A program made the position numbers and the translations under genes. From Phycisphaeraceae bacterium (GTDB taxonomy: Bacteria; Planctomycetota; Phycisphaerae; Phycisphaerales; Phycisphaeraceae), in the NCBI GenBank assembly GCA_963674705.1, contig OY771506.1, positions 3,072,001 to 3,136,000 on the forward strand: a DNA stretch of 64,000 nucleotides. Direction: 5' to 3'. The first letter of the stretch is position 1. Each line of letters opens with the position of its first letter. The notes beneath the pieces are model-generated. The model did not search any database, was not told the DNA's origin, and saw only the letters and a list, made by a program, of their open reading frames with translations. Below are positions 1,476 through 23,097 of the stretch, in pieces.

Positions 1476-2216
1476 ATGATGCCTGCGAAGGTAATCAACA
1501 TGCGGACGCCAATCATGGAACAGCGGCAACTCCAACCCGAGCGCATGGATGATCCTACACTGGATAGTAGCCTGCACCGCCAGGCTCTCCGAGGCCTGGC
1601 ACGGATTAATTGTTTTTCGCGCAGCGCCGCGATGATCTGGAATCCATTGCGTGCACAACTGGCCCTTCGCCACTGCAATGTTTCGGCTAAGCGTGTGCTA
1701 GACGTCGCCTGTGGTGGCGGTGATGTGACACTGGAGCTGCAGCGGCTTGCTGATCGCGATGATGTGAATGTCCGCGTCGATGGTTGCGACATCAGCCCCA
1801 TCGCCGTCCAGACTGCGGCCCAATTGGCTGATAAGCGCGGTACCCGCTCCACTTTCTTCAAACACGATGCGCTATCCGGATCGCTGCCGCAGGGCTATGA
1901 CGCGGTTGTCTGCAGCTTGTTCCTGCACCATCTAGACAACGACCAGATCGTTGATCTTCTCAACCGCATGGCTGAAGCCACAAACGTGATCGTGGTCAGC
2001 GATCTAGAACGCAGTCGCTTCGGCTATCTCGCGGCAAAAATCGGGACACATGTGCTTAGCCGATCTTCCGTCGTACATTACGACGGACCCGTTTCGGTGC
2101 AGGCGGCGCTGACCGTCGATGAGGCGCACCGCCTGGCGTTCGCGGCAGGACTCGATGGTGTTTCTGTAGACCCCATATTCCCATGCCGCTGGCTCTTGAC
2201 GTGGAGTCGGCCATGA
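1476..2216 (+). CDS. SAM-dependent methyltransferase (type III PKS-associated)
   Basis: VLDVACGGG motif I, CSLFLHH, and N-terminal ERMDDP. The true start may be 1500 or 1515. Confidence 0.9.
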   Translation: MMPAKVINMRTPIMEQRQLQPERMDDPTLDSSLHRQALRGLARINCFSRSAAMIWNPLRAQLALRHCNVSAKRVLDVACGGGDVTLELQRLADRDDVNVRVDGCDISPIAVQTAAQLADKRGTRSTFFKHDALSGSLPQGYDAVVCSLFLHHLDNDQIVDLLNRMAEATNVIVVSDLERSRFGYLAAKIGTHVLSRSSVVHYDGPVSVQAALTVDEAHRLAFAAGLDGVSVDPIFPCRWLLTWSRP

Positions 2217-3343
2217 TCGGTGACTTCGACGCGGTGGTGATCGGGGCAGGACCGGCTGGTTCGGTCTCAGCTTATACGATGGCCCGTCGTGGCTCGCGTG
2301 TCCTGCTCGTTGACAAGGCGTCGTTCCCGCGCGAGAAGGTCTGTGGCTGTTGTCTTAATGCACGGTCACTGGCGATACTGGATCGGCTGGGGCTTGGCGA
2401 TCTGCCGTCCAGGCTTGGGGCTCGTACAATCAAGCGTTTACTTCTGAGCTATGGATCTCGCCACGCCACGATACCGCTTTCCGGCAGCGTCAGTCTCTCG
2501 AGGCTTGCACTGGATCAGGCGCTGATCGAACGTGCCCAAGAAGCTGGCGTCAAGTTCTTAGACAAGACTTGCGCCGCAGTAGGCCCTGCAAGCACCAAGT
2601 CACGCAGCGTCATGCTTCGTTCGAGTGAAGTGGGGTCCGTGAACACGAACGCGAGAGTTGTCCTGTTGGCCGACGGACTTACAGGTACGGCCTTGAAGAG
2701 CGACACGTCGCGCCTGAACCAGGTCGCATCTTGGTCGCGTATGGGCGCGGGGGTAGTCATTCGGCATGCCCCCGATGCTTACGCGCCGGGCAGTGTCTAC
2801 ATGGCATGCAGTCAAGATGGTTATGTTGGGTTGGTTCGTCTGGAGGATGATCGGCTGGACATCGCGGCGGCTATGGATGTGGGCTACTTGCGGGAGGCAG
2901 GGGGCCCTGGTCCGGGTGTGGTGTCGCTTTTGAAAAAGACGGGAATGCCGATGATCTCCGGCCTAGAGGAACAGCGGTGGCGCGGCACAGGCCTATTGAC
3001 GCGGTCCAGACTTCATGTGTATGACGAGCGCCTACTCGTGCTAGGCGACGCAGCGGGTTACGTCGAGCCGTTTACAGGTGAGGGGATTGCTTGGGCCCTC
3101 ACTGGTGCCGAGGCGGTGGTCGACATAGCGATAGAAGGTATTAACTCTTGGCATCCGACATTGGGTAAGGCATGGGAAAAACGGTACCGGAAGCTGGTCC
3201 ACCGTCGCCAGACCCGCTGCCGGCTTGTGGCGTTTTGGTTGCGTCACCCGACGCTGAGCGCACCTGCTGTCGCCTTGCTTGGCCGTTCACCGCAACTGGC
3301 TAAACCATTCATCCGCACGCTGACGCAGATCGCATCCGCTTAA
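2213..3343 (+). CDS. FAD-dependent oxidoreductase (geranylgeranyl reductase-like)
   Basis: VIGAGPAG Rossmann motif, FPREKVCG, and GDAAGYVEPFTGEGI. ATGA overlap with the upstream stop. Confidence 0.92.
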   Translation: MIGDFDAVVIGAGPAGSVSAYTMARRGSRVLLVDKASFPREKVCGCCLNARSLAILDRLGLGDLPSRLGARTIKRLLLSYGSRHATIPLSGSVSLSRLALDQALIERAQEAGVKFLDKTCAAVGPASTKSRSVMLRSSEVGSVNTNARVVLLADGLTGTALKSDTSRLNQVASWSRMGAGVVIRHAPDAYAPGSVYMACSQDGYVGLVRLEDDRLDIAAAMDVGYLREAGGPGPGVVSLLKKTGMPMISGLEEQRWRGTGLLTRSRLHVYDERLLVLGDAAGYVEPFTGEGIAWALTGAEAVVDIAIEGINSWHPTLGKAWEKRYRKLVHRRQTRCRLVAFWLRHPTLSAPAVALLGRSPQLAKPFIRTLTQIASA

Positions 3344-3359
3344 CACTCTGGAGTTGCTC

Positions 3360-4460
3360 ATGCAGGCAGACATACTAGGCATCGCGACCGCTCGCCCCAA
3401 AGGAGTTTTTAGCCAGGAGCAGGCCTTGGCTATGGCTTGTAACCGAAGCACCCAAGACTCCCGCCAGTCGGACTTGCTTAAGCGCATGTACACCAATAGC
3501 ACGATCCGCCAACGCGCCAGTGTATTGGTTGAAGATGTCGACAACCCGCTTGAGTCACTGGAACGGTACTACCCCGTCCCACGCGACGGCAACGGGCACG
3601 GCCCGCCGGTCTCCCAGCGGATGCAGCGTTACCAGCGCGACGCGGGGTCACTCGCCTGTCAGGCGTCAAGCCTGGCGCTTGCGTCGGCCGGCATCGAGCC
3701 CGACACAGTAACGCAAGTCGTGGCTGTCTCATGCACAGGTTTTGTCTCACCCGGTATCGACACCGCGCTGATCCGCGGGCTGGGCCTGCTTTCCACCACT
3801 GGCCGGACGATGATCGGCTTCATGGGTTGTCATGGGGCGATTAACGGCATGCGGGTCGCCTCAGCGTTGGCAACCGCTTCACCGGAGGCATGTGTGCTGC
3901 TATGCGCGATTGAATTGTGCACACTGCACTTTCAATACGGCTGGCACCCTAGTCGGGCGCTTGCCAATGGGCTGTTCGCCGACGGCGCCGCTTCGGCAGT
4001 GATTATCCCGACGAATTACAGCAACCGTGCATCTGATACATGGCGAATCCATGCAACCGCATCGTGTTTGCTCCCGGATACCGAAACAGACATGGGCTGG
4101 TCAATCGGTGATCACGGGTTTGAGATGACACTGAGCCACCGTGTACCCGACCGGATTCGTGAACACCTGCAGGGCTGGTTAGCCGGGTGGTTGATGGAAC
4201 ACAACCTCGCTATTGGCGACGTAGCGCATTGGGTGATTCATCCCGGAGGTCCCAAGATCATCGATGCCGTCGAGTCTGCGCTAGGTCTGTCTCCGCACGA
4301 CACGGTTACCTCACGCGAGGTCTTAGCCGAGTGTGGCAACATGTCATCTCCCACAGTGCTTTTTATCCTGCAACGAATAGCGAAAACGCAAGCGGAGTGT
4401 CCCTGCGTGATGCTGGCGTTCGGGCCGGGCCTGGTCGTAGAGGCGGCACTGCTTTTATAG
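3360..4460 (+). CDS. Type III polyketide synthase (chalcone synthase-like)
   Basis: Catalytic triad contexts GFMGCHG (Cys), HPGGPK (His) and GNMSS (Asn); also LFADGA and FGPGL. GGAG RBS before the ATG at 3360. Confidence 0.96.
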   Translation: MQADILGIATARPKGVFSQEQALAMACNRSTQDSRQSDLLKRMYTNSTIRQRASVLVEDVDNPLESLERYYPVPRDGNGHGPPVSQRMQRYQRDAGSLACQASSLALASAGIEPDTVTQVVAVSCTGFVSPGIDTALIRGLGLLSTTGRTMIGFMGCHGAINGMRVASALATASPEACVLLCAIELCTLHFQYGWHPSRALANGLFADGAASAVIIPTNYSNRASDTWRIHATASCLLPDTETDMGWSIGDHGFEMTLSHRVPDRIREHLQGWLAGWLMEHNLAIGDVAHWVIHPGGPKIIDAVESALGLSPHDTVTSREVLAECGNMSSPTVLFILQRIAKTQAECPCVMLAFGPGLVVEAALLL

Positions 4461-4492
4461 GGCCCCCCCAGCGCCCTGGCGTACGTGCGGAA
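4459..4492 (+). repeat. 34-bp imperfect direct repeat, copy 2 (encodes GPPSALAYVRK)
   Basis: 29/34 identical to 1277-1310; all five differences are synonymous third-position changes. Confidence 0.8.
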
Positions 4493-4585
4493 ACGTCAGT
4501 AAGAAGACTTCGATTTATTGTCTGGCATCATCATCTACGAGCCCCCACGTCATGCCTTTCAATGCGTAAGGGCGGTTCTAAAATG

Positions 4586-4594
4586 TGTTATAAT
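4586..4594 (+). promoter_or_regulatory. Extended -10 promoter upstream of the DUF5131 gene
   Basis: TGTTATAAT. Confidence 0.4.
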
Positions 4595-4860
4595 GAAGTT
4601 ATGAGAGTGTGACTTTGGTCATGTCTTCGGGGGCCTCAAGCCGGGTAGACAAAATTCTAATCGTTATGAGGTCTTTCGTGCTGTGACTAAGCACTTTAGG
4701 CAGAGTGTGATCGTATGCGCGGATCCCGAGTCAATGCATGAATGAGAACAGAGTATTTTAGAAATCGCCGCCGATTGTTTCGGCCGCTTAAGGAGAGTCG
4801 GTATGACATCAAGAATCGAAACCTTCAACTATGGAACCTTCATATGGAGTAATGGATACG

Positions 4861-5691
4861 ATGGGCATTAAAACTAAAATTCAGTGGACGGACTCGACCG
4901 TGAACCCGACGATGGGCTGTGACGGTTGTGAACTGTGGTGTAATCAGAGACGCAGTTGCTACGCCGGCAAGCTTCATGATCGCTGGGGGAAAACAAATAA
5001 GGGTCTCTCTGATACCTTCGATCAACTGGCTTGTTATCCAGGCCGCATGGAAAAGGCAGCCAGATGGTCGAGTTTGGAAGGACGCTTGAGAGAAGGCGAG
5101 CCGTGGAAGATTAAACTGCCGCGGATGATCTTCGTGTCGGATATGTCGGATGCTCTTTCTAAAGATGTTTCGTTCGAGTATCTGAAAGAGGAGGTGATTG
5201 ATGTGGCCGCCTCAGCAATGGGGCAGCAGCATAACTGGCAATGGCTGACCAAGCGGCCGGAACGTATGGCGGAGTTTGCAGTGTGGCTCGCCGACATGAA
5301 TGAGTCCTGGCCCTCAAACTTGTGGGCGGGCACGAGCCTGACGACGAACGGGACACGATCACGGATCGCTCCTCTGTTGAAGGTGCCGGCCGAAGTCCGT
5401 TTCCTGTCGGTTGAGCCTCAGATCGAAGACATTGATTTGACCGGCTATCTTGGTGGGATCTACTGGGTGATTCAAGGCGGCGAGTCAGGTAACGACGCGA
5501 GACCCTTTGAGGTAGAGTGGGCAGATAAGATGCGGCGGCAGTGCGAGGATGCTGATGTGCCGTATTTTCTAAAACAATTAGGAGCGTCCGCCTATGAGCA
5601 CGGTGAACCGATCGAGCTCAAAGACGGCCACGGCGGCGACTGGATCGAATGGGACGAGCGGCTGCGTGTGCGGCAGTTCCCTCGATTCTGA
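4861..5691 (+). CDS. DUF5131 / phage Gp37-Gp68 family protein
   Basis: TKIQWTDSTVNPTMGC...C...CYA, IFVSDMSD, LTKRP, RFLSVEP, WVIQGGESG and FLKQLG motifs. The ORF is open from 4831. Confidence 0.9.
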   Translation: MGIKTKIQWTDSTVNPTMGCDGCELWCNQRRSCYAGKLHDRWGKTNKGLSDTFDQLACYPGRMEKAARWSSLEGRLREGEPWKIKLPRMIFVSDMSDALSKDVSFEYLKEEVIDVAASAMGQQHNWQWLTKRPERMAEFAVWLADMNESWPSNLWAGTSLTTNGTRSRIAPLLKVPAEVRFLSVEPQIEDIDLTGYLGGIYWVIQGGESGNDARPFEVEWADKMRRQCEDADVPYFLKQLGASAYEHGEPIELKDGHGGDWIEWDERLRVRQFPRF

Positions 5692-5762: not shown

Positions 5763-5979
5763 ATCAAATATATTTAGCCATGTGCTATTTTGACCTCACT
5801 CTCAGCAAGAGCTGCAGCAACATAGTTGAAGGTTCGAAGAGGGGCTGGGTAGTTGGTAAGTTTCACGCAAACTGAATCCGAAAAAATATAATCGCACGAT
5901 ATGTCACACGCAGCTAGTTCCATTTGGGCTCTTGATCGTAATAACCTTTCGATAATCCAAGTCACCACCCGCTGAGCCG

Positions 5980-5993
5980 TCTATGAGCAAGCC
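5980..5993 (-). mobile_element. IS110/IS1111-type right-end sub-terminal repeat
   Basis: The minus strand reads TTGACAACGGCTTGCTCATAGA (an outward -35 plus the repeat). The 14-mer TCTATGAGCAAGCC recurs at 24563 ahead of an IS110 N-terminal fragment. Confidence 0.7.
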
Positions 5994-6182
5994 GTTGTCA
6001 AGCGGGCCTAATCTGTGGGCTGGATCCAACCATCTATCCGGCATCGATCTCATGGGTCGTGCCACTAGTCTGTATACGTAAACCCGCCTCATTCACCACA
6101 GCAAGGTCCAGATTGGCCTTACGGCCCAGCTCGAGGTCGGGTGTGATCTGCCCAGCAGACCCCTGTTCGGATCTATCCACCA
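5994..6182 (-). ncRNA. Candidate IS1111-type bridge/seek RNA region
   Basis: About 190 nt of non-coding sequence between the transposase stop and the right-end repeat. It contains GCCGGATAGATGGT, resembling the end junction ATAGACGGT, and a GGCC-GTAA-GGCC hairpin. Confidence 0.5.
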
Positions 6183-6620
6183 CTACGTCGCCCAACGCCA
6201 AGTCTCGCCGCTGCGCAGCATCGCCAGCATGCAACGAAGCAGCTTGTGTGCGGTTGCCACCACGGCGATCTTCTTGCGTTCCGGCTTCCCGTTCATGACA
6301 CGATTGAAGTAGTCACGCATCGCCGAGCACTTCCTGATGATTTGCCAAGTCGCTTCGACCAACAGCTTCCGGACTGTTGAGGGCCCCTGCCGAGTGATGT
6401 GACCCAGGCGATTGACCCCGGCGCTGGCGTCCTGCGAGGGCACCAACCCGAAGTAGGCGCCGATTCGATTGATGCACGCAAAACGTTTCGGGTCGTCGAT
6501 GTATGCCAGCACCGCCTCCGCGATACGCACACCCACCCCCGGGATCGTCGATAGTAACGCAATGCCGGGGTGGTGTTGCGCCAACCGGTCCAGGCGATCC
6601 GTCACGGTAGCCACGGTCAC
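6183..6620 (-). pseudogene. IS110-family transposase, C-terminal fragment
   Basis: TIPGVG, AYFGLVPSQDASAG, GHITRQGPSTVRKLLVEA and KKIAVVATAHKL motifs. The N-terminal DEDD domain is absent here. Confidence 0.88.
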
Positions 6621-6754
6621 GAGAGAGCCGCAGGCGTTGTAAGGCGTATCGAGCTTGTCACGCTTGGCGTTTTCCACGGCGCGGTACCAGTCTTTACCGC
6701 TGCGCAGGTGCATCAATTGATCGACGGACCAGCGGTCGTTGGGGCGGGCGCCGC

Positions 6755-7300
6755 GATCAGCACGTGATAACGAACCAGACCACCGAGCGTCCACACTTCC
6801 ACCGTGAAGAAGTCGGCTGCCGCGAGGTGTTCCCAGTGCGCCTTGAGGAAGGTCTCCCAGCTTCCGCGTTTGCTCCGCTCCGGCGACGGTTCGATCCCGT
6901 GCGCCTTGAGAATCCGGCCGATCGTTGTGTCGCTGACCCGGTGGCCCAGATTCAATAGTGCGCCTTCGATACGGTCGTAGCCCCAATCCTTGTTCTCCGT
7001 CGCCATGCGCACCAACAAGGCCCGGATCTCTTTCATCACACCTGGACGGCCTGGGCCGCGGTTCTTGCTGCCATCGTACTTCCTGGCGATCAAGCGTCGG
7101 TGCCAACGCAGCAGTGTGTCGGGCGTAACCAGCGTGCCCAGTTCTCGCAATACCTTGCGTCCCAACACCTTAGCTTTGACCGCAAGCCGCCGCCGCTGGT
7201 CATCGGTAAAGCGCAGGCGCTTCTCACCAAACTGCTCGCGAAGAACCCGGTTCTCTTCTTTAAGGTAGTCAATCACAGACTGCTGCTGGCGATTGATCCA
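6755..7300 (-). pseudogene. Truncated rve-type transposase/integrase (IS3/IS481-like), HTH region
   Basis: [20 protein letters not shown]...[11 protein letters not shown]...[10 protein letters not shown]...AADFFTVEV, broken before the DDE core is complete. Confidence 0.8.
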
Positions 7301-7430
7301 GACCTCTTCGATAAGGTCCAGAAACTCCTTAAGCTCAACGGTAGAACCGGCGGTGCGGAGGACCGCAACAAGTACGGGGCTATCCTGCGCGGGCTGCTGC
7401 GGTGCAAGACCTGCGGGACCGCGATGAACC
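7292..7430 (+). pseudogene. Large serine recombinase fragment (end of recombinase domain and start of Zn-ribbon)
   Basis: [13 protein letters not shown]...[21 protein letters not shown]. Confidence 0.65.
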
Positions 7431-7588
7431 GCGCGTTCGGTTTGCTGGCCAAGCGGTGGAAGAACTTGACGTCTTCCGGTATGCAGCGGTTGAAGTTATT
7501 ACCCGAATACCGGCTAGCTTGCGCGCGAATTCATAGTGTGATCCGTATTTCACCCGCGCCAGTAAGCCCCACATCTGTGGGACGTTGA

Positions 7589-9211
7589 TTATTCATCCGC
7601 AAGCCGGACCAATTCCGCTTCTACGGAGTCAAACATGTAACCGATCATCAGCGCCCGGCGTGACGGCCGGATCATGCCGGAATAGACGCGCTCGTACTCC
7701 TCGCGCAATGCCCGCATCTGTTCAAGAATCCGCGACGCCTGATCACGGTGTGCCTGCGGGTCAAAGCCATCTGTCCGGCTCAGCAGAATGAGCTGCGACG
7801 CCTCGGCCCGGTTAGTCAGGTTACGCGCGGCGAGTTCCCACAATTCCAGTCGGTATTCACCTTTCGAGGTAACCCGCATGAGCGATCTGATCTGATCTAG
7901 GCTTCTGGCGTAAGCCCGCCGCCGTGCACGGGCGGTCTCGATATGTTCATCGAACCCACCTTCTGCAATGATAGAGGCCAGTGTCTTCTCGACGTGGTCC
8001 GCGGGCACGGGCAGGCAAGCCTTGCCGATCCCAAGCGATTGCGTGTGGGTGAAAAGGCAAGGTTCAGACAAGCCCTCCACCGCTTCCCAGAAGCGGTCAT
8101 CTTCTAAGCCGTAGGCGCACTTCACGTACCGGTCTCGGAACTCGGCCATAGTAGACTCGGGGTTCTGTGACAGGAAGCCAACCGCGGCGATGTGGGCGTG
8201 CTGTAACTCCCAAGGGTGAAGGTGGACCGACCAGCTTGTCAGCACCGTGCCGCACAAGGCGGGTGTCTTCAGCCCCTTCGCAGCCGAGTCCCATGTATTG
8301 TGCAACTGGCGTTTGTGTCTGGGCGAAAAGACATTGTCGCCGTCGCAACTTGATCCGGGGCAGGTGACAACCTTAAAGCCCTTGTCGGCCAGGAAGTCGG
8401 CTGTATAGAACGTTTCCGGGTCGACGCCGGGCGCGTCTCCGTTTGGGAACAAATATTTGCCAAACAGATCAAGGTCTTTTGGTGTAAACTCGTTCCTGTT
8501 TCGCAAGCCCCGCTTGTCACCCCAGATATATACCCTGCCGTTGCCGCGCCAGACGTCATACATCCAGTCAAACAGCATCACATCACGCGATAGCTCATCG
8601 ATCGCACCGTTGTGGTGCAGCGCCATGTCCGCCCAGATGATGGGTGTTGCGCCGCGTTCGATCAGTGGCTCAGATATCGTGTTGACATGCTGAATGAATA
8701 TCTGTGAGACACTCAGGTCGTGCTTGTTCCTTGCACTCTGTTGCACATGGTCAAGTCGGCGGGCCTCGTCGCAGCCGATGTGGAAATAACGTACTTCGCC
8801 GAAAAGATCGAGGTACTCCGCTATCCAGTCGTGCAACAGCAGTACGACGGCCGGGTGCAGCGGGTTGTATTGCGTCGTGTCGTCAGGATGGGCGCGGAGG
8901 CCGGCGTACTTTTCGTGCCGCAGGACGTACTCCGCATGGCCGAGCGTCTGCAGCAGCGGAATGTTGTCGAGGCCTAATCCTTTGGCATGCTCGAGCAGCT
9001 TGCGGAATTCATCCTTGGTCAGCGCATCGGGCTGGTGTGCCTCCGGTATAGTCTGCCACTCGATGCCGCCTTCCAGCTCCCAGACGACCGTGTTGTAGCC
9101 CATCTCGGACAATGTTGTCAGCCAGGCCTCAAGATAGTCTGCACGGTACTGCGCCATATTCATGTCGATATGGAAACCGATGATACGCCTTTCAATCGTC
9201 TTTAGAACCAT
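7589..9211 (-). CDS. GH20-family hexosaminidase (HexD-like)
   Basis: IPLLQTLGHAEY, HIGCDEA catalytic motif, and IIWADM. Confidence 0.85.
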   Translation of the reverse strand: MVLKTIERRIIGFHIDMNMAQYRADYLEAWLTTLSEMGYNTVVWELEGGIEWQTIPEAHQPDALTKDEFRKLLEHAKGLGLDNIPLLQTLGHAEYVLRHEKYAGLRAHPDDTTQYNPLHPAVVLLLHDWIAEYLDLFGEVRYFHIGCDEARRLDHVQQSARNKHDLSVSQIFIQHVNTISEPLIERGATPIIWADMALHHNGAIDELSRDVMLFDWMYDVWRGNGRVYIWGDKRGLRNRNEFTPKDLDLFGKYLFPNGDAPGVDPETFYTADFLADKGFKVVTCPGSSCDGDNVFSPRHKRQLHNTWDSAAKGLKTPALCGTVLTSWSVHLHPWELQHAHIAAVGFLSQNPESTMAEFRDRYVKCAYGLEDDRFWEAVEGLSEPCLFTHTQSLGIGKACLPVPADHVEKTLASIIAEGGFDEHIETARARRRAYARSLDQIRSLMRVTSKGEYRLELWELAARNLTNRAEASQLILLSRTDGFDPQAHRDQASRILEQMRALREEYERVYSGMIRPSRRALMIGYMFDSVEAELVRLADE

Positions 9212-9667
9212 CAGTATCGACTCCGAATAAGCGTCGCTGGACCCGAAACCCGCCGGTCATAATGCCAAGGTGGCGCATCATAAACAGGCGTTTTCTGGCA
9301 TTAGCATAGCAAATCCCCCAATCACTCGACATACATGAGTCCCTGGTGTTGTTTAGCGTAAATCGTGGTCAGCCGCTGCAAATCGTTGCCGATGATAGCC
9401 CCGCAGCTTCAATGGGATTATCACGCGTCAAAGCGAAGTTATCGTGGCGGGTCTGAACGGGTAGAAGATGCTGATGACTTACGCGTATCGCCAGTCCGGT
9501 TCATCGAACCTGCTATCGACGGTGATGTTAGCGGTCGCATGCCGGCAGGCATAGGCGGGCTCCGCAGATGGTTGCCGTGTCACCGGCGCGTGGCGACAGG
9601 CAGTCAACGCGAGGGTACACGTTGCGACGGTGGACAGGATGAGGACTTTACCCAACATGAAACGGTC

Positions 9668-11857
9668 CTATGTCGTCGGTGGTATGGGCGTTTGGGTGGA
9701 CTGGCCAGCGCCGTTGGTAGGGGGCTCGGACAGCGGTGTATCGTCGTCGACCGGTCGGGTGACAATGCCGGTGTCGTTGAAATCGCGTTTGAGTGAACCG
9801 AGCGTCATGAAGAGCCTGCGTGTATCGATGATCCCGCCGATCAGGAACCAGATGATCGTGCCTATGCCCAGGACCAGCATCAGGCCCAATCGCCATTCCC
9901 AGTACATCACCCAGTCGTCCTCGGACATATGGCCCCAAAGGCCGTTACGGGCGCCGATGAACTGCACCGTGCCGACGATGAACACGATGAACCAGATGAT
10001 GGTCCAGGCGAGCTTGCCATAGTAGATGAACTTATCTCCGAGGCTGAACTCTCCGGAGGGCAGGATGGCGCGTAGGCCGGAGACAGGCTTGACCACTTCG
10101 CCGTCGTGATCGACCCTGATGGCGTAGCGACCGCGGTGCAACATGCGCTCCATGTTGAACGCCGGCCGCCTGGCAACCAGCCATGCCAGCAGCGAACAGG
10201 TCACGTACCCCACGATCGACAGGCACATGGCGAAGAAGTTGACCCACTGGCCATCCAGCGGGAACTCATCAGGGCCGACCTTCCAGTTGATCCCCCAGAC
10301 GCGCGTCGAGACGCCTTCAAGCCCTGTCCTAACCAGGTCCAGCAGCCAAGGGGCGTCCGTAACCATCCAGGGATACAGTGAGTCCTTCCATAATAGACGC
10401 AAAATCATCCCGCTGACTGCGACGACCCACCCGGTGGTCAGGGCGACCCACGCCCCGCTGGTCGAACCACGCTTCCAGTAGAGCCCGCCAATGATCAGCG
10501 AGCCCGCACCGCCGATGTAGATCGCGCCGGTGATGGCGAAGAACATGAAGATCAGGTCATTCTGCTCATACAGCAGGCTGAAGAAGAAGATGAAGACGGC
10601 TACAAAGAAGATCGAGAACCGCAACATCCGCATGTGTTGTTTGGGCGTGAAGGGCTTCTTGCGGAACGGCAGGATCACGTCCTGAATGAACATGGAGCCC
10701 CAAGAGTGCAGGTAGGTATCGTGCGTGGCGGTGTTGGCCGCCAACATGGTCGCGCACAGAAGCCCGATCATCCCGACCGGCAGTGCCTTGGACAGTACGA
10801 CAGGGACGGTCATCTGCTCGCGGATCTGCGGGTTCTCGATCCCGTCAAGCACACCCATCGCGTTGGCAACGACCTGCTCGTACCCGCTGTGGTGCATGAT
10901 GACGAAAGCCCCGATCGGCAGGAACATGGCCACGACGGTGAACACCAGCCCCCGCCACTCACCGAGGATCCCGGCCATCTTCGCCTCATGCGCCGTCCTG
11001 GCCGAGGCGTTGTAGCCCTGCGATCCCTGCCACGCCTTCCAACCGTAGACATAAGTGAAGGCGCCGATCAGGAAGAAGAAGATGTTGAATCCCTCGACCT
11101 TGGAGGTCTGGAACGGCTGAATCATCGAGGCGTCCTTGGGCGCTTCTCTGAGCGTGTCTATGATCGTCGACCAGTCGAACATCCAGAAGATCGCGCCCAG
11201 AATGACGATGAACACGATATTGGTGAAGACGCCCTGTATGAAGTCCGTGACCATAATGGCGATCTGACCACCGATGAACACGAAGAACAGCGCGATCCCC
11301 AGCATCACGACCATGACGCCCGCGTAGACCAGATCGATGTCGCGCCCCAGGATGTTCACGGGGTAGTGCGGGAACCCGCAGAAGTAGATCATGAACCGCG
11401 CGCCTACAGCGGGGAAGATCCCGAAGTTGATGATGCCCGCGAGCCAGCCGAGGATGCCGGCGTAGACCCGGATGCCCTTGCTGTAGCGCACCTCGAAAAA
11501 CTGCGCCATCGTCATCACCCGCGTTTCACGATATCGATAGATCACCCACCCCGACAGCGCAATGATCAATGCCAACGGCGTCATGATGAGGTGCCACCAG
11601 TCGGCAGTGAGGCCCGCCTTGTAGTACATCTCGAAGAAAGCGACGATACTGATCGACCCCAGCCCGGCGGTCCCTTGGGAGATGCACAACAGGTAACGCC
11701 CGGCGCAGCGATTGGCCGCCAGGAAGTCCGCGATGCTCTGGATGCACTTCTTCGTCGAAATCGCCGCCGCGACGATCCCCACCAGCAGGCCCAGGACGAT
11801 GCACCAGTCGATCCAGTGCATGTTTGAAGCGAATACGGCCAAGCTCGGGGTCGGCAT
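9668..11857 (-). CDS. Sodium:solute symporter (SSS family)
   Basis: Many TM helices, DFLAANR, TMAQFFEVRYS, GGQIAIMVTDFIQ and GGLYWKR motifs. Confidence 0.9.
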   Translation of the reverse strand: MPTPSLAVFASNMHWIDWCIVLGLLVGIVAAAISTKKCIQSIADFLAANRCAGRYLLCISQGTAGLGSISIVAFFEMYYKAGLTADWWHLIMTPLALIIALSGWVIYRYRETRVMTMAQFFEVRYSKGIRVYAGILGWLAGIINFGIFPAVGARFMIYFCGFPHYPVNILGRDIDLVYAGVMVVMLGIALFFVFIGGQIAIMVTDFIQGVFTNIVFIVILGAIFWMFDWSTIIDTLREAPKDASMIQPFQTSKVEGFNIFFFLIGAFTYVYGWKAWQGSQGYNASARTAHEAKMAGILGEWRGLVFTVVAMFLPIGAFVIMHHSGYEQVVANAMGVLDGIENPQIREQMTVPVVLSKALPVGMIGLLCATMLAANTATHDTYLHSWGSMFIQDVILPFRKKPFTPKQHMRMLRFSIFFVAVFIFFFSLLYEQNDLIFMFFAITGAIYIGGAGSLIIGGLYWKRGSTSGAWVALTTGWVVAVSGMILRLLWKDSLYPWMVTDAPWLLDLVRTGLEGVSTRVWGINWKVGPDEFPLDGQWVNFFAMCLSIVGYVTCSLLAWLVARRPAFNMERMLHRGRYAIRVDHDGEVVKPVSGLRAILPSGEFSLGDKFIYYGKLAWTIIWFIVFIVGTVQFIGARNGLWGHMSEDDWVMYWEWRLGLMLVLGIGTIIWFLIGGIIDTRRLFMTLGSLKRDFNDTGIVTRPVDDDTPLSEPPTNGAGQSTQTPIPPTT

Positions 11858-11918
11858 GCTGGTTGGATTCCTTCCTGGCGGCTATGCAGATAAGGATGAC
11901 CGGATGCGACCGATACGT

Positions 11919-13931
11919 TCAATCGGCGGCGTCGGAGTGCGTGTGACTCACGGTTCTGTCGGGGCTGGCCATGATCTGATGCTGCATGGCCCGATCCGGA
12001 TCTCGTCCATCCTGTGCAAAGAGTTTGGCCAGCCATAGGTGCGCCAGTTTGTAGCCCGGCGCCATCGACACGCAGGTCTCCAGTGCCTGGATCGCCTGCT
12101 CGGTCTTGCCGGTTTCCGCTAGTGCGACACCGAGGTTGTAATGAGCTCTAGGGAACTGGTGCGTCAGCCCGACCGCACGCAATGCGTAGTCCACCGCCTC
12201 ATCGTAGTGTTTTTTCACGATCGAAACACGGGCCAGCCCGTTGTATGCGACCGAGCTTTCGTCATCATTTCCCAGCAGCTTTTTATACGCACGCTCCGCA
12301 TCGTCCCACTTCGCAAGCTGGCCGTAGGCCTGTCCCAAGGCCCCGAGCAACGCCTCCATATCGGGCGCAATCGTCTCCGCCCGTTTGAGGTATTCAATCG
12401 CCTCCTCGGGCTTTTCCTGACGAAGCTTCACCTGCCCAAGCGTGGCTAGCAGGACGGCGTTAGTGGGGAATGTTTCAAGCAGCTCAAGGAGCAGCGGCTC
12501 ACACAGGTCCGTCTGGCCTGTCAGCAGGTAGCAGCGCGCCAGTTGGAATTTGTATGCGACGGCGTCCTCCTCGTCCTGGACCAGCAGCTCCTGCCAAATG
12601 GGAATCGCCTGGTCTGCTCGCTGGCTATCCGTCAGAGCCTTGGCAAGGTTAATCTTCTGGTCGAACATGGCGTGTTGAACGCTTTTCTGGACATCGTCGC
12701 TCGGTGCATCGATATAACCGAGTTCCACCAAGTGACGGATCGCTTCGGCTGAGGCGACCGGGTCTTCCCTACAGTCCTCCCCGTGCATCCCGTCATCGCC
12801 TTCGACCTGGTCCCAACTGATGATGTGCTCGGCCCGTATCTCCTTGTCGAAGATCTCCAGCCATGGTCGTCCGTCCATATCCGCACCGATAGGCAGGCCG
12901 AACAGCGACAGAATGGTCGGCGTGACGTCCAGCACCGTAGCGCCGTAGACGTGGGTGTCTTGCTTGATCCCGGGCCCCTTGGCGCAGACCACACCGAACG
13001 GCCGGTGCCAGCTCTCGGGGTCTTTGAACCCGTCGGAGTCACTTCGGCCCTTGCCGCTGTGGAAACCGTGGTCGGAAACCAAGATGACGGTGGTATCGTC
13101 CCCAGCGTAGCTTAACATCGCCTCGAGCATCATGTCGTGGTATCGGTAACAGCCGTTCATCACATCCTTGTACAGATCGGCGTCACGCTCGCTGACGCCT
13201 TCTATAGCGGGTGGATGGAAAGGCATGAAGTAGTGCCCCATCAGGTCGATCGCGTCGTAATAGACAGCCATGAAGTCCCACGGCTCGTTGTTCATCAGCC
13301 AGCACGCGGCGGCGTGAACCGTGCTGGCGCGTGCCAGCAACCCGGCGAATGTACCGAGTCGATCGTCCTTCGCCGTATCAATCTCCGCGGCGCGGGGGAT
13401 GAAAGGCAGGATGGCCATGGCGTCGAGCTGACGAGGGTCGACCCGCAGTTTCAGCAGGTCACCCGCCAGGCGTTCCGGGTGGAACATGCCGTCGCTCGAT
13501 GAGGGTGCTTGCTGATCCGGGCCCAGACGCGTCACGTAGCGTTCGGTCACGACCGCGCCGTTGATCGGCTCGGCGGGGTGGCTGGCGTACCATGTGACGA
13601 CGTTGGACTTCATCCCGCTCTGAGAAAGGATGTTCCACAGGGCCTTGGTCTTGCGGCTGGTGCTGCTGACCGGGCGGATGCCGCTGCCGTCAGGCAACGG
13701 TTCGGTGAAGCCGTAGATCCCGTGTTTGTCCGCACGTTTGCCCGTGGCGATCGAGTTCCAGAGCATCGGCGACAGGATCGGGCGGATCGTGGCGAGTTTG
13801 CCACTGACCCCATCCTTGATCATCTGTTCGAGTGTCGGCATCAGGCCCTGTTCGATCAACGGCCTGATCATGACCCAGTCGGCGGCGTCCCAGCCGATCA
13901 GAAGGACCTTCTTGGCTAACCGTTGTGTCAT
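11919..13931 (-). CDS. Alkaline phosphatase/phosphodiesterase superfamily protein with C-terminal TPRs
   Basis: IGWDAADW, LSPMLWNSIATG, DAIDLMGH and VSDHGF motifs, followed by a TPR array. Confidence 0.88.
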   Translation of the reverse strand: MTQRLAKKVLLIGWDAADWVMIRPLIEQGLMPTLEQMIKDGVSGKLATIRPILSPMLWNSIATGKRADKHGIYGFTEPLPDGSGIRPVSSTSRKTKALWNILSQSGMKSNVVTWYASHPAEPINGAVVTERYVTRLGPDQQAPSSSDGMFHPERLAGDLLKLRVDPRQLDAMAILPFIPRAAEIDTAKDDRLGTFAGLLARASTVHAAACWLMNNEPWDFMAVYYDAIDLMGHYFMPFHPPAIEGVSERDADLYKDVMNGCYRYHDMMLEAMLSYAGDDTTVILVSDHGFHSGKGRSDSDGFKDPESWHRPFGVVCAKGPGIKQDTHVYGATVLDVTPTILSLFGLPIGADMDGRPWLEIFDKEIRAEHIISWDQVEGDDGMHGEDCREDPVASAEAIRHLVELGYIDAPSDDVQKSVQHAMFDQKINLAKALTDSQRADQAIPIWQELLVQDEEDAVAYKFQLARCYLLTGQTDLCEPLLLELLETFPTNAVLLATLGQVKLRQEKPEEAIEYLKRAETIAPDMEALLGALGQAYGQLAKWDDAERAYKKLLGNDDESSVAYNGLARVSIVKKHYDEAVDYALRAVGLTHQFPRAHYNLGVALAETGKTEQAIQALETCVSMAPGYKLAHLWLAKLFAQDGRDPDRAMQHQIMASPDRTVSHTHSDAAD

Positions 13932-14038
13932 CTTGATCCCGATTTGGATTCTTCGGTATTAGTAAGTAAAGGGCCAGGCCCACGGTTACGCAAGCCCAGC
14001 CCGAGTGTTGAAACCGTCACAACAGCATCCGTGCCGGG

Positions 14039-14707
14039 TTACGCCGAGCGGCGGCGCAGGCCGATGGCGCCGAGGCCGGCAGCGAGCAGGCCCAGCGACG
14101 CCGGTTCGGGAACCGCGCCGGCAACGATGTCGGTGTCCACAGCGCTCTCGTAGGCGTAGTCGTAGGCGATAAGGTGCGAATTGTACTGGCTCGTGCCGGT
14201 GATTTTCAGCCGGATCCAGGCCCAGTGCAAACCCCCACCCGCGTCTTCCAGTTGAATAGCCGCGTACTGCGGGTCGGTCAGGTTGCGGAAGTTGGTATAG
14301 GAGACATGTAGTCTGTCGAGGGCATTGGATAACGGCGACACGTTCGGGTTGGATGATCCGATGATGTCACCCGCACCGAACGACCGGACATAAGCGTTGT
14401 TGCCCTTGGAGATGTTGGTCATGGTAGTCGTGCCGTTTATCCCAAAGCACCTCATTCGCGCGAACCACCCAGGGCTCGAACCCGGCGCGTACGCGTCGGT
14501 GTGTTGGATCAGCAGGTCATCGGTACCGTCACCATTCATGTCCAAGTAAAACCCAGGATCACCTGTGACCTGGTCGACATCGGGGACAATGTCACCATAG
14601 ATGATCGCCGCCTGCGCGCCTTGAGCGGCGCCGAAAGCACCCAATCCTGCCGCGGCCGAGTAGGCCATCAGTCGCTTAACACTATCCTGCTTCTCTCTGG
14701 TCTCCAT
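14039..14707 (-). CDS. PEP-CTERM surface protein (paralog 2, no dockerin-like module)
   Basis: Signal-like leader ending AQA, C-terminal VPEPASLGLLAAGLGAIGLRRR. Start taken at the METREKQ ATG, which has a GGGAG RBS. Confidence 0.88.
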   Translation of the reverse strand: METREKQDSVKRLMAYSAAAGLGAFGAAQGAQAAIIYGDIVPDVDQVTGDPGFYLDMNGDGTDDLLIQHTDAYAPGSSPGWFARMRCFGINGTTTMTNISKGNNAYVRSFGAGDIIGSSNPNVSPLSNALDRLHVSYTNFRNLTDPQYAAIQLEDAGGGLHWAWIRLKITGTSQYNSHLIAYDYAYESAVDTDIVAGAVPEPASLGLLAAGLGAIGLRRRSA

Positions 14708-14872
14708 CTGCTTTCTCCCATCAATAAGGTGTGAAAATAGTATTCGAACAAACACAATGGACAACATACATCGAAGTTAAACTGTTAGGTTCAAGACGTG
14801 CGTCCTCCTCTCTAACAACCCCCGTTTCTTGTGTGAATCACATGCTGTGTAGCGGGGTATTAGGCCGGCCGT

Positions 14873-14898
14873 AACCGCCCCCGGAGGTCGGGGCGGTT
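14873..14898 (-). terminator. Hairpin downstream of PEP-CTERM paralog 1
   Basis: AACCGCCCC...GGGGCGGTT stem; the U-tract is weak. Confidence 0.4.
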
Positions 14899-14918
14899 GC
14901 AGGCCGGATCGAGTTTGA

Positions 14919-15812
14919 TCACATACGCCGGCGACGCTTACATGCCATGGCGCCGAGACCCACGGCGAGCAGGCCCAGCGTGGCCGGTTCGGGAACGGCG
15001 GCGACGGGCGGCGTGCCGTTGTTCCAGTTGTTCAGCACAATGTCCAGGTCGGATAGACCCACAAATCCATCACCCGTGGGATCGCCTTCGCTCCATTCGC
15101 CCGGAGTTACGTTCTGGTTCCAGTTGGTCAGAACGATATCCAGGTCGTCCAAGCCGACGAAGCCGTCGCCGTTGAGGTCGCCGTCTATCGAGGTGACACC
15201 CATGTCACCGGCAAGAATCCCGGTCACGTTGTACAGGTCGGTCTCGTAGGCGTAGTCGTAGGTCGTCAAGAGAGAATTAGTTGAGCTGGTGCCGGTCACT
15301 TTCATTCGGATCCAAGCCCAGTGCAGGCCCCCGCCCGAATCCGCCAAACGGATCGCCGCGTATTGCGGATCGGTCAGGTTACGGAAGTTGGTATAGGCGA
15401 CATGCACCCGGCTGAAAGGGCTGATGCACAACTGCACGTCTGGATTGGAGTTGCTGATGTCATCACCCGCACCGAACGAACGGACATAATAGAGGTTGCC
15501 CTTGGAGGCGTTGGTCGCCACGCGCGTGTTGCCTAACGGGTAGCACCTGAACCGCTGGTACCAACCGGAGCTCGCGGCCGGCGCGTAGTTGTCGACATGT
15601 ACGATCCTCAAGTCATCGATACCGTCACTATTCATATCCAGTAAAAACTCGGGATCATTTTCGGCCTGGATGATATCGGGGTTGATGTCGCCATAAATGA
15701 CTGACGCCTGAGCGCCTTGTGCGGCGCCGAAAGCACCCAGCCCGGCCGCGGCCGAGTAAGCGAGAAGTCTTTCCAGCGTATCCTGAGTCGATTCATTCTT
15801 GTAATTTGACAT
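14919..15812 (-). CDS. PEP-CTERM surface protein with dockerin-like module (paralog 1)
   Basis: Collinear with 14039-14707, plus two GD.GDGFVGL.DLDIVL.NWN repeats and VPEPATLGLL...KRRR. Confidence 0.9.
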   Translation of the reverse strand: MSNYKNESTQDTLERLLAYSAAAGLGAFGAAQGAQASVIYGDINPDIIQAENDPEFLLDMNSDGIDDLRIVHVDNYAPAASSGWYQRFRCYPLGNTRVATNASKGNLYYVRSFGAGDDISNSNPDVQLCISPFSRVHVAYTNFRNLTDPQYAAIRLADSGGGLHWAWIRMKVTGTSSTNSLLTTYDYAYETDLYNVTGILAGDMGVTSIDGDLNGDGFVGLDDLDIVLTNWNQNVTPGEWSEGDPTGDGFVGLSDLDIVLNNWNNGTPPVAAVPEPATLGLLAVGLGAMACKRRRRM

Positions 15813-15890
15813 ACTTTTCTCCTCAATGCAAAAAGGTAAGACGTGCGGTATTCACATAAAAAAACCAAAGATTCACAATGAATTGGTTTA

Positions 15891-17498
15891 TCAGATTGTG
15901 TAACTCGAGCCTGTTAGTTGATCAAGGCAATTAACACCGCAAACAAATGACGGCGCGTTGGGTTGTTTGGGTTGACTGGCCGGCGGATAATCTTGGGCGA
16001 GTAATTCAGACCTGACCTGGAAGTCATGGTAGTCGCGCATCTTGCGAGGTGACCAGAGGACTTCACTCAGAGCCAGTAACCTCGGCATAACCTGACGGAT
16101 CAGTTGCTCATATGTCTTGATGCATTCTGTCCAAACCGGTGCTTCCCCGCCCAGCACCAGGTCCGCCGCCACCGTCTCCAGGCCCTCGGGGACCGGCTCA
16201 AAGCCATACACTTTTTCGACCGGCAGCAGCGGCATCCAGTCGGGCTTACCAAGTCGGCTCTCTTCGCAACAGGGGTAGTCCATGTAAACATACTCATGGA
16301 ATGAGTTGATCGTCTGCCGTCCCAAACTCGCAGCCATTTCGCTCTGGCCCTCTAGCCATCCCTGAATGATCTGGCCGTCCGGCATCCCCGCCTTCTTGAG
16401 GTTGTCACCCCAGCCGATCGTTCGGACCTTTAGTTGTTCATGGACATAGTTAGTGATCTGCGAAGCAAACCAGAACTCCAGTTCGTCTTCACTCTTAAGT
16501 CCCAACTCATGCATACGTTTTTTACATGACGGGCACTGACTCCAGAAACCAGTCGGCCGTTCGTCTCCTCCGAGGTGGATGTACTGCGGTTCAAACACCT
16601 CCGCGACTTCGGCCAGGACATCCTTAAGAAAAGTGAATACCTCGTCACGTCCGGCACAGTACAAACGACGACCGCCGTCACGTGTATAGGCATTCAACCC
16701 GCCGGCCGCATCAACGGTTATGGATTTGCCGGAGCAAGACAGGCTCGGGATTGCATATAATGCCGAGTTGCAGTGGCCGGGCATATCGATCTCGGGGATC
16801 ACGATGATGTGACGATCATTCGCGTAAGCGACAATGTCACGGACCTGTTGTTGCGAATAGAAACCACCGTAGCGACTGTCGCCCTCACCACGCCAGGCGC
16901 CCACGGACGTCAGTCTTGGATACTTCCGGATCTCCATCCGCCAGGCTTGATCGTCAACGATGTGCCAGTGGAAGCGGTTGAATTTCAATGCAGCGATTCG
17001 GTCGATGATGCGTTTGATTTCCGAAACACTTTGCATATGCCTGGCGGAATCAAGCATAAAGCCGCGCCATGAGAACCTGGGCCGGTCATTGATGTGAACG
17101 CATGGCAGGTACCGAGATCCGCCATGATTGGCGTCACCCGTAGCGAGTTGGAACAAGGTCTGTACGCCGTAGAACGCACCGGCTGGACGCCGTGCCGTGA
17201 TGCTGACACAGTCCTCATTCACAGTCAGTTGATAGCCCTCGTCGCCAATATCACTCAGGCCGGGGTCCTGTATAAGCCGTATCGATCCGTCACTTTTCGA
17301 TCCCAGCGGGTTACCTGATCTGATGCACACATCGGCACCCGACTCGGAGTCGATCCAGTCGGCGAGATATCGTCCGAGCCAACGATACCGTTCGACATCA
17401 TCGACGATCTCCAGGTGTATCACCCTCACGGACGCCAGGGCGAACTGGCCTGGACAGCGCTTGACTTCCACGGGTTTGGGGATCACAGCAAGCCGCAT
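15891..17498 (-). CDS. GH20 beta-N-acetylhexosaminidase
   Basis: DRPRFSWRGFMLDSARH, DDQAWR, PEIDMPGH, HLGGDE and WTE motifs. Confidence 0.95.
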   Translation of the reverse strand: MRLAVIPKPVEVKRCPGQFALASVRVIHLEIVDDVERYRWLGRYLADWIDSESGADVCIRSGNPLGSKSDGSIRLIQDPGLSDIGDEGYQLTVNEDCVSITARRPAGAFYGVQTLFQLATGDANHGGSRYLPCVHINDRPRFSWRGFMLDSARHMQSVSEIKRIIDRIAALKFNRFHWHIVDDQAWRMEIRKYPRLTSVGAWRGEGDSRYGGFYSQQQVRDIVAYANDRHIIVIPEIDMPGHCNSALYAIPSLSCSGKSITVDAAGGLNAYTRDGGRRLYCAGRDEVFTFLKDVLAEVAEVFEPQYIHLGGDERPTGFWSQCPSCKKRMHELGLKSEDELEFWFASQITNYVHEQLKVRTIGWGDNLKKAGMPDGQIIQGWLEGQSEMAASLGRQTINSFHEYVYMDYPCCEESRLGKPDWMPLLPVEKVYGFEPVPEGLETVAADLVLGGEAPVWTECIKTYEQLIRQVMPRLLALSEVLWSPRKMRDYHDFQVRSELLAQDYPPASQPKQPNAPSFVCGVNCLDQLTGSSYTI

Positions 17499-17504
17499 GA
17501 AACA

Positions 17505-18641
17505 TTACTCCGATTTAATCCCGGACAGCACACCGTCCTCAACACTCGACAGCGCGCGGTCAAGCACGGTAAATGCTGCTCCCATCGCAACGCCGTGATC
17601 CCCCAGTTCCGAGGCCAATACAGGGATATGCCGATCGGGTACCGGTACGAGACCCCTATTCAATTCCGATTCAATTAGGTCGAACAACCTTTTGTTACAG
17701 AATGCAGTATTACTGCCGATGATCACGGCTTCCGGATCGAACAAGTCGCAAAGAATGGCGAGCGTGCGACCCGTTCCGATGGCAAGTTTGTGCAGACCCT
17801 CAGTCATGTCTGCTTCGGCCTGTCCCATAAGGAGGACTTCCTCGGCACTGTAACGCTCGACTGACACGATCTCACGCACCAGCTGATGGACTTCACCCGC
17901 GGCGAAGTGGGCGCCACGGTCAAGCTTGCCCCCCACGTAATGCGTTGAGCCGACGCTTATGAAATCGTAAAAACCGCCTACCGCACTGATATGCAGAAGG
18001 ATATAAATAAAGTTCTTCAACGGAACACCGCAGCCGATGCGGCCTTCGGCAACGGCCGCAAAATTGACGTTATTATCCACACGGACATGGGTGTTGAACT
18101 GCTTAGCCAATAAGCTTCCTATCGAATACTTATGTAGCTTGAGCATGGACGAGAACACAACCTGGCCGGTACGCGTGTCCACAATACCGGGGATGCCAAC
18201 ACCCACACCCAGCATCTTGCCTATCGCCTTGTCACGACGCGAACCCCAATCGGTGATGCGATCGCCTAGCGTGCCGAGGATATGGGGCAGATCGTGATCG
18301 ATCTCGAAGTAGTCGTGTTCAAGCACGTTTCCGGCCATGTCCAGGTATGTGATAAAGCCCCAGTCGGTACTGATACCGAGTCCGGCGACCCATCCTCTGC
18401 TGGGATTGACTTCCAGAAGGACCTGTTTTTTGCCGACAGTATTGGACGCACGCTTACCCATGTTGCGGATAATGTTGGATTCCAACAAGTCGCGGACGAT
18501 ATAGGTCATTGTGGACCCGTGCAGACCGGTCATCTCGGTCAATTGCCGGCGTGACAGTGGTCCGTTACGCAGGAGTTGAAGAATCTGCCGACGGCTATGA
18601 AGTGCCGCATTAGTCAGGTTGGATTTGTCGGGTGGCGTCAT
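17505..18641 (-). CDS. ROK-family transcriptional regulator (NagC/XylR-like)
   Basis: N-terminal HTH (LSRRQLTEMTGL), GVGVGIPGIVD, VDNNVN and AGEVH motifs. Confidence 0.9.
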   Translation of the reverse strand: MTPPDKSNLTNAALHSRRQILQLLRNGPLSRRQLTEMTGLHGSTMTYIVRDLLESNIIRNMGKRASNTVGKKQVLLEVNPSRGWVAGLGISTDWGFITYLDMAGNVLEHDYFEIDHDLPHILGTLGDRITDWGSRRDKAIGKMLGVGVGIPGIVDTRTGQVVFSSMLKLHKYSIGSLLAKQFNTHVRVDNNVNFAAVAEGRIGCGVPLKNFIYILLHISAVGGFYDFISVGSTHYVGGKLDRGAHFAAGEVHQLVREIVSVERYSAEEVLLMGQAEADMTEGLHKLAIGTGRTLAILCDLFDPEAVIIGSNTAFCNKRLFDLIESELNRGLVPVPDRHIPVLASELGDHGVAMGAAFTVLDRALSSVEDGVLSGIKSE

Positions 18642-18759
18642 GATCTAATTATTAAAGCAGGCAAAATTACAGTTCACAAAATGTTCCATCGGTCTCTAAC
18701 GTATGAGCAACTGGATGATGTTCATATCACCCGCCATCGCGTAGATCGCACGGCGGTTG

Positions 18760-19584: not shown

Positions 19585-19686
19585 TTCGGGACACTCCCTG
19601 GTTAATCCTGCCTAGTTCCGTATGTAACCTGACTGACATGGGCTGATATGGTCGGTTCACTCATAGTGCCAAGCCATCTGCATACA

Positions 19687-19774: not shown

Positions 19775-19781
19775 ACACGCA

Positions 19782-23091: not shown

Positions 23092-23097
23092 ACCTCG

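Follow-up and report, generated by a model that had tools for sequence, protein, structure and literature searches.

A broken IS1111-type element of a Phycisphaeraceae bacterium with a predicted two-loop bridge (seek) RNA whose guides match the terminal repeat of a resident insertion sequence

The window analysed here, a stretch of 64,000 nt within a single 5.54-Mb contig of a Phycisphaeraceae bacterium, contains the remains of an IS110-family transposase gene followed by a non-coding tail, which raises the question whether a guide RNA is still legible in this tail and, if so, at which DNA it was aimed. The first-pass annotation had described an intact-looking IS1111-type bridge/seek RNA region with readable guides beside a dead transposase, and this main point is upheld. 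With high confidence we read the locus as the right end of a broken IS1111-type element, the tail of which is a predicted two-loop bridge (seek) RNA targeting a resident repeat between its bases 5 and 6. Sequence comparison establishes the scaffold, two target guides, the element ends, and the repeat as the predicted target.

The minus-strand fragment at 6183-6615 comprises the 3' 145 codons of an IS110-family recombinase (stop codon 6185-6183), i.e., the Tnp domain (PF02371 of Pfam, E 2e-19), the RuvC domain being absent. The IS110 motif G-L-P----S is represented by GLVPSQDAS, with A and not G as the next residue. This fragment is the sole PF02371 match in the genome (5.54-Mb contig, 96.6% complete; here G000), in which neither a PF01548 (RuvC) match nor an intact IS110 recombinase was found. 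Codons 1-19 are located at 24633-24689 on the plus strand, with 18 of 19 residues identical to the N-terminus of the related recombinase P0005. The C-terminal fragment is 82-85% identical to P0003-P0005 (82% to P0005), and thus both gene fragments are closest to the same proteins. The pieces cover codons 1-19 and about 195-339 without overlap, approximately 175 codons are lost, and of the N-terminal DEDD RuvC domain, which is present in P0003-P0005 (P0005 passes NF033542 with 223.6 versus a cut-off of 140), nothing is left beyond codons 1-19, including the first D. The recombinase C-terminus lies in frame within a 307-codon chimeric ORF (6183-7106, minus strand, TTG start) with a hypothetical product. 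Downstream of the gene, the non-coding tail extends over 203 nt (6182-5980) and not over the roughly 190 nt given before, whereas the upstream non-coding region of the element measures 74 nt. Judged from this layout, the long downstream non-coding region is that of the IS1111 group.

At the right end, a subterminal inverted repeat (5993-5983) is followed by the 3-bp extension AGA (5982-5980), together 5980-5993 on the minus strand. A left end of the same kind of element, its end position being taken from relatives, occupies 24559-24689 on the plus strand and consists of a 7-bp extension (24559-24565), an inverted repeat (24566-24576), a ribosome site (24620-24625), and the codons at 24633-24689. 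Both repeats match at 11/11 positions, or at 13/13 if two extension bases are counted, and are thus within the 11-13 bp of IS1111 subterminal inverted repeats. The extensions, with the same spacing in the relatives, follow the IS1111 rule of 7 bp on the left and 3 bp on the right as given in text passages of PMC11187229. The left ends of the 18 intact relatives with both ends start with (T/A)GA-NN-CT-ATG, of which GA and CT were part of the search pattern, and the right ends of relatives finish with AGA or GGA. Two findings fix the left boundary, namely the match of the left guide and nine copies in two further genomes (G441/G684) whose outer flanks vary. According to this end rule of the relatives, the start of the element is placed at 24559 and its end at 5980. 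The left-end-like piece noticed earlier near 24550, sharing a 13-bp inverted repeat, is indeed present, but its true start lies 9 bp further inward; a start at 24550 breaks the 7-bp rule, and rejoining from there rebuilds no natural empty site. Due to this misplacement by 9 bp, the right-end/left-end junction derived from 24550 differs from the circle junction, and the 9-mer thought to match it did so because its first eight letters are those of the real right-end/target join, the ninth being coincidental.

Just inside the right end, the outward TTGACA of the first-pass annotation was located at 6001-5996 (minus strand) as a -35 hexamer. TTGAC is invariant in 35 relatives, partly imposed by the search pattern, and no full promoter was found around the hexamer in place. 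The computed circle junction offers a perfect -35 and a -10 with only 2/6 matches at 16-18 bp, scored without a planctomycete promoter model.

Related loci, the named ones mostly from Planctomycetota, were gathered by DNA, protein, and motif searches. From 113 parsed right ends, the whole scaffold was present in 62, of which 43 remained after removal of near-duplicates and 39 were used for guide tests; L015, L022, L058, and L076 were dropped since their 5' anchor was not found. These 39 elements, 18 of which have their own left end, include the window copy and a second remnant of the same genome. For the structural alignment, the two copies of this genome and six elements with long inserts or poor anchors were removed from the 43, leaving 35 relatives. 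Since relatives are kin and not independent, the permutation counts below overstate significance.

A covariance model of these 35 relatives, built without the window copy, covers the window copy in full length (model 1-173) at 5980-6151 on the minus strand, the predicted bridge/seek RNA gene plus right end, with 121.4 bits (E 1.5e-32) and one non-standard pair. Ten other copies score 85-147 bits, a range in which the 121 bits of the window copy fall, and two copies are detected in G000. The consensus fold comprises an outer stem around an internal loop and an inner hairpin, followed by a second hairpin with open flanks. The first unit, the predicted target-binding loop (6083-6141), is formed by an outer stem (6141-6132/6091-6083) with compensatory changes in 7/8 pairs and an inner stem (6121-6115/6109-6102). 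In case of the predicted donor-binding loop, the inner stem (6064-6055/6049-6039; 6039-6064 overall) shows two-sided changes in 5/8 pairs. Considering the 21 stem pairs kept, 94.9% of the cells pair, two-sided changes occur in 15, and stem covariation amounts to 0.41 versus 0.20 in shuffled alignments (0/500) and 0.06-0.15 with slid partners, the structure being derived from the same alignment. A conserved scaffold with two guide loops, as expected of a bridge RNA, is thus observed, with a donor loop that is open and lacks a closing stem. The last helix of the model, situated over the inverted repeat, contains one cell with a two-sided change and was not taken as real. Folded alone, the whole tail (z 0.12) and 6151-6010 (z -0.42) are no better than shuffles; only the target loop, a segment chosen after the model, is (z -2.95). 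No Rfam match was obtained in the tail, the two chance-level hits both being located outside of it.

The right-target guide (6122-6130, minus strand) pairs with the top strand of the right flank at 8/9 positions plus one G-U, and at 9/9 with copies of the resident repeat, e.g., G000:2012579. It corresponds to GCTGGGCCGT at 6130-6121, for which nine Watson-Crick pairs and one G-U to 5980-5971 had been reported; this complementarity is real, except that the supposed 10-nt flank begins with 5980, which still belongs to the element as its last base. As best 7-base match to flank bases 2-8 over eight offsets, the guide position reaches 6.26/7 in cognate versus 4.33 in permuted pairs (0/20000, n=39), and at least 6/7 in 34/39 cognate pairs versus 14% of non-cognate ones. 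With one element per distinct target the values are 6.24 versus 3.98 (n=17). A held-out set was obtained from 34 new loci of model searches, of which 12 were parsed, six being duplicates and six new, and yielded 6.17 versus 4.06 (47/20000, n=6). In the duplicate L220, the flank is offset by 4 bases.

The left-target guide TGTGG, followed by core TG and A (6093-6100, minus strand), has the same sense as the left flank and the first bases of the left end. It tracks the left flank at 4.0/5 versus 1.57 permuted positions (n=19, including the assumed pair of the window, which gives 3 of 76 matches), the matches stop at base 5, and each of the three held-out elements with this pair agrees at 4/5. 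In the window copy the fit is 3/5 plus one wobble. The top-strand match (6130-6122) lies 5' of the bottom-strand match (6100-6096) in the RNA, which is the IS1111 order. The first-pass annotation had missed this guide (6100-6093), the right-donor guide (6071-6068), and what kind of target is involved.

The first-pass annotation itself had cautioned that the 10-mer overlaps a hairpin and could be a chance match. The GGCC hairpin in question appears only on folding 6130-6115 in isolation; within the complete loop, as in the relatives, these bases have other uses. That all guide-like matches are chance hits in a decayed tail would be in agreement with their shortness and with a tail that folds like shuffles, but only 7/5000 dinucleotide shuffles of the tail contain such a match, the position-specific covariation holds in 39 + 6 elements, and the model matches over its full length. 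Guide covariation, model match, stem covariation, and the held-out test effectively refute this explanation, to which we concede next to no probability. The check proposed with the original claim, i.e., a covariance model of homologs, a two-loop structure, and covariation of guides with insertion sites, was run and passed.

What was the target? The right flank (5813-5979, minus strand) belongs to a resident IS481/IS3-like element, of which it represents the left end, starting at base 6 of the terminal repeat and reaching into the first transposase codons, with 82% identity to G000:2113552 over 39 nt and 75% over 59 nt. The left flank TGTAC (24554-24558, plus strand) equals the first five bases of the resident repeat and also starts the copy G000:1864674. 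Rejoined (24554-24558 plus 5979-5961), the flanks match seven chosen repeat copies at 17-20 of 24 positions. A pattern from chosen copies gave at least eight matches with at most one mismatch among the 33 matches listed. A whole host element was observed at G000:2012579-2014067, where a 407-aa DDE transposase is encoded within 1489 bp between inverted repeats starting with TGT; no target duplication was seen there. Terminal repeats of the IS481 family begin with TGT. Due to a transposase below both family cut-offs (IS481 NF033577, 135.6 bits versus 224; IS3, 114 versus 160), the host element is termed only IS481/IS3-like. The right-target guide fits the repeat consensus better than the present flank, the poorer fit of which would be explained by one later change or a wobble, and the copy G000:4866005 fits both target guides without mismatch except for wobbles. 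Of seven genome sites fitting the target pattern, four are resident repeats. Since none of the other elements among the 39 shares this target, its assignment for this copy rests on one insertion. The target guides thus fit a resident terminal inverted repeat, that of the IS481/IS3-like element, and the IS1111-type element likely inserted into this repeat between bases 5 and 6.

Next to the left flank, an outer, older copy of the resident repeat (24505-24553, plus strand; 73% over 45 nt to G000:2014067) represents an unoccupied, target-like site. Resident repeats are nested in this way at 24505-24558 of the window and at G000:3594388-3594361, which suggests insertion of the host element into its own ends or next to them. 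A second full-length RNA of the clade is located at G000:C1:2027172-2027341 (L198:773-942; 111.9 bits) without a recombinase gene and is close to the intact element L106. This RNA carries different guides, and the site that they fit, directly downstream of another rve-type transposase gene, also occurs unoccupied near 2050626, 2104403, and 2115114. Both IS1111 remnants of this genome are located in other insertion sequences. A weak third right-end-like motif (G000:C1:2648921-2648951, minus strand, 10 bits) has a flank typical of other clade members. Right flanks starting with GTCCCC, GGCACCC, or GCCACCC are common to many relatives (L063, L073, L082, L036, L004, and others) and give the impression of repeated palindromic elements.

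The second loop was examined for matches to the element ends. The short right-donor guide (6065-6071, minus strand; first four bases 6071-6068) agrees at 3/4 positions with the left end at 24559. In a fixed register, chosen after seeing the data, 25/36 positions match versus 12.5 permuted (without the window), and held-out elements match at 5/6 positions in three elements; a free-sliding test is weak (76-550 of 5000 permutations). The left-donor guide (6030-6037, minus strand) reads ATAGA, core TG, and the predicted handshake base G (6030); ATAGATGGT, reported earlier at 6037-6029, is present and marks this real guide position. It follows the right end in 39/39 elements, with ATAGA in 36 and ATGGA in three. 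Donor guides matching the element ends, as in bridge RNAs, are therefore observed, with weaker evidence than for the target guides.

A different reading holds that only the target loop works, as a short seekRNA of approximately 60-90 nt, that the protein recognises the ends via the inverted repeats, and that the second loop, as a precursor tail, owes its matches to RNA-RNA pairing or to history. In good agreement with it, text passages of PMC11187229 report that an 82-nt ISEc11 seekRNA is sufficient for movement; furthermore, the right-donor match is short and partial (12-14/19 per position), the left-donor guide varies in only 3/39 elements, and the handshake base could pair with the right-target guide rather than with DNA. 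On the other hand, conservation of the second stem is accompanied by compensatory changes, the donor guide changes along with the ATGGA end variant in 3/3 cases and with the AG core in 1/1, and the two variable left-end bases are tracked in one register only (26 versus 9-12 of 38 when slid), with the held-out 5/6 in addition. We regard a working target loop alone as rather unlikely and retain the two-loop RNA as the preferred reading.

The base following donor guide and core (equivalent to 6030) is identical to the third base of the right flank in 39/39 elements and in 6/6 held-out ones. Among the 39, it is C in 14, T in 14, and G in 11 (permuted mean 13, maximum 26), and never A, the base which the circle junction would offer. 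For IS621, text passages of PMC11208158 and PMC13626964 describe a base beside the core whose identity covaries with the non-cognate DNA and which promotes the exchange of strands, and the base observed here is probably the IS1111 mirror of this handshake. However, it complements one of the bases of the right-target guide in 39/39 elements, and RNA-RNA pairing thus explains the covariation equally well. Its position on the bottom-strand guide is what one would expect of an IS1111 RNA that applies the IS621 design to the opposite strand, a reading which by analogy would also explain the reversed guide order described in passages of PMC11187229. We consider it fairly probable that the IS1111 RNAs of this clade mirror the IS621 bridge and possess a natural handshake base (45/45). 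A second handshake base, between target loop and left end, is unsupported (9 same, 10 different). A handshake rule for IS1111 was not found stated in a literature search limited to text passages. Should the base act as a handshake, IS1111 and IS621 RNAs would use a common mechanism on opposite strands, reprogramming of an IS1111 enzyme would require changing that base too, and such a mirror-image bridge would bear on the seek-versus-bridge question.

By analogy with IS621 and ISEc11, the element would have left its former site as a circle, the joined ends of which would have formed a promoter, and the RNA would have bound the DEDD recombinase, its first loop pairing with both target strands and its second loop with the element ends. 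After strand exchange, the base behind the donor guide may have paired with the target, on the DNA strand opposite to that of IS621.

The ends at 5980 and 24559 now lie 18.6 kb apart in inverted order, the flank at 24558 being on the ABC-permease side and that at 5979 on the DUF5131 side. Both gene fragments adjoin a patchwork (window 6616-7560 and 24690-25644) of 138 bp of a cellular-gene paralogue (G000:1961598-1961735), a 551-bp rve transposase piece (91% to G000:4844010), and 830 bp that are 90% like G000:3610958; positions 7305-7440 resemble what we presume to be a serine-recombinase zinc ribbon. The junctions 6616, 6754, and 24690 are spanned without differences by short-read contigs (X1/X2, which may be the source sample, and X3, from another sample of the same study, which spans 24690), and the joins are therefore not an assembly slip. 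As the ends are separated and inverted, some 175 codons are missing, and the search of the genome yielded no intact IS110 recombinase, the predicted RNA is probably idle today.

Of the possible histories we favour, with moderate confidence, a single insertion that was later inverted and trimmed. The left end at 24559 would then probably be the other end of the same insertion, separated from 5980 by an 18-kb inversion and deletions. The pairing of both ends is short of proof, as the left flank fits the guide at 3/5 plus a wobble and the right-donor guide at 3/4. Regarding flanking-gene synteny, the two genes tested were not found in 10 same-genus genomes, and elsewhere they occur on different contigs or far apart; because of this negative result the region looks like an accessory island. 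The GC skew of the segment is -0.024 versus +0.037/+0.023 in the flanks, with 17-kb windows varying by about +/-0.1, and neither skew nor synteny discriminates between the histories. Window 1476-5691 and 7589-24471 contain a type III polyketide synthase cluster, the DUF5131 gene, two GH20 hexosaminidases, a ROK regulator, PEP-CTERM proteins, and an ABC exporter. No intact copy of the exact element was found in G000 or in viral contigs, nor one with the same target among the 39.

The ends could also stem from separate insertions into two resident repeat copies, each of which later lost its partner. At least eight close repeat copies exist in the genome, the left flank starts with TGTA whereas the two classable left-type repeats start with TGTG, and lone ends are usual in the clade: of the 48 right ends for which 1.5 kb or more of upstream sequence is available, a full gene accompanies 10, a partial gene one, and no gene 37 (eight of these with a nearly whole RNA), and among 19 left ends with enough contig, five have a full gene and 14 do not. 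The left-end count covers 30/48 places examined and includes the window and two to three likely chance hits; the loci are L047-L126 and L252-L281. Nevertheless, only one matching left end and one recombinase fragment were found in 5.54 Mb, the ends lie 18.6 kb apart in the orientation expected from one inversion, and the gene pieces do not overlap, which makes two insertions unlikely in our view, if the strongest competitor of the single insertion. Several left stubs in the clade break at codons 21-40. In L051 and L058 the left target is fused straight to the inside of the RNA gene, as from recombination between left junction and an internal site; an origin of lone right ends by recombination at the left junction fits only 2/37 and was rejected. 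L128 and L131 are very short, MITE-like, with two right-end-like repeats head to head.

It is also conceivable that the locus is the scar of an RNA-guided inversion, in which a chromosomal circle fragment with joined ends recombined with a repeat 18.6 kb away. Re-inverting 5980-24558 restores, by geometry, a whole repeat and a joined-ends site, the gene fragments lie in a patchwork of short foreign pieces like a captured circle fragment, and bridge recombinases invert DNA in the laboratory according to passages of PMC11208160. This scenario requires two rare events, though, an ordinary insertion followed by inversion and deletion yields the same end state, and no joined-ends sequence was detected in the genome or among the joints listed from four runs. 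We consider it quite improbable, and just as doubtful the joint proposition of an inversion scar of an IS1111 element preying on the ends of another insertion sequence plus a mirror-bridge handshake of the clade. A single insertion with later inversion and trimming remains our preferred history.

The RNA class itself has been known since 2024, and this RNA is another example. The planctomycete IS1111 clade now has a readable guide set of approximately 45 distinct RNAs with at least 17 different targets and a testable rule, namely identity between the base that follows the donor guide and the target base to the right of the core. In addition, the IS4321-type habit of disabling the end of another element is extended to a new host family.

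Compared with known systems, the element resembles the IS1111 seekRNA elements ISEc11, ISPa11, ISKpn4, and ISPst6 (Siddiquee et al. 2024, PMC11187229), as far as described in passages of that paper, in the downstream non-coding region, the subterminal repeats of 11-13 bp, extended by 7 bp on the left and 3 bp on the right, the top-strand match 5' of the bottom-strand match, the absence of a target duplication, and, in relatives of the clade, a recombinase of approximately 340 aa. It differs by belonging to a planctomycete clade with its own scaffold and no Rfam match, the best plasmid relatives being about 33% identical, by a second loop that tracks the element ends, a role unassigned in the text passages of PMC11187229, and by this copy being broken. 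With IS621/ISCro4 (IS622), according to passages of PMC11208160, PMC11208158, PMC13626964, and 10.1101/2025.05.14.653916, the clade has in common a target loop followed by a donor loop, a 2-nt core, and a core-adjacent base covarying with non-cognate DNA. Unlike in IS621, the RNA is located in the right end, the guide order is reversed, the handshake base belongs to the bottom-strand guide and reads the base to the right of the core, and the donor loop lacks a closing stem in the consensus fold. The IS621/ISCro4 proteins are distant from those of the clade (E 6e-14 to 8e-16).

Concerning target choice, Partridge and Hall (2003) reportedly found that IS4321/IS5075, members of the IS1111 group, target the terminal repeats of the Tn21 family. 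For IS5075, targeting of Tn21 repeats is also given in passages of PMC8269217, and the likeness is that an IS1111 element has the terminal inverted repeat of another mobile element as its target. The present host, an IS481/IS3-like element of 1.5 kb with TGT ends, resides in a planctomycete and is not a Tn21 transposon, and the comparison refers to target habit, not to sequence. ISEc21 of the IS110 group, which targets IS3-family transposase genes (passages of PMC11187229), is unlike the present element in its upstream RNA, its lack of subterminal repeats, and a target inside a coding region rather than at an end, and shares with it the RNA-guided targeting of another insertion sequence.
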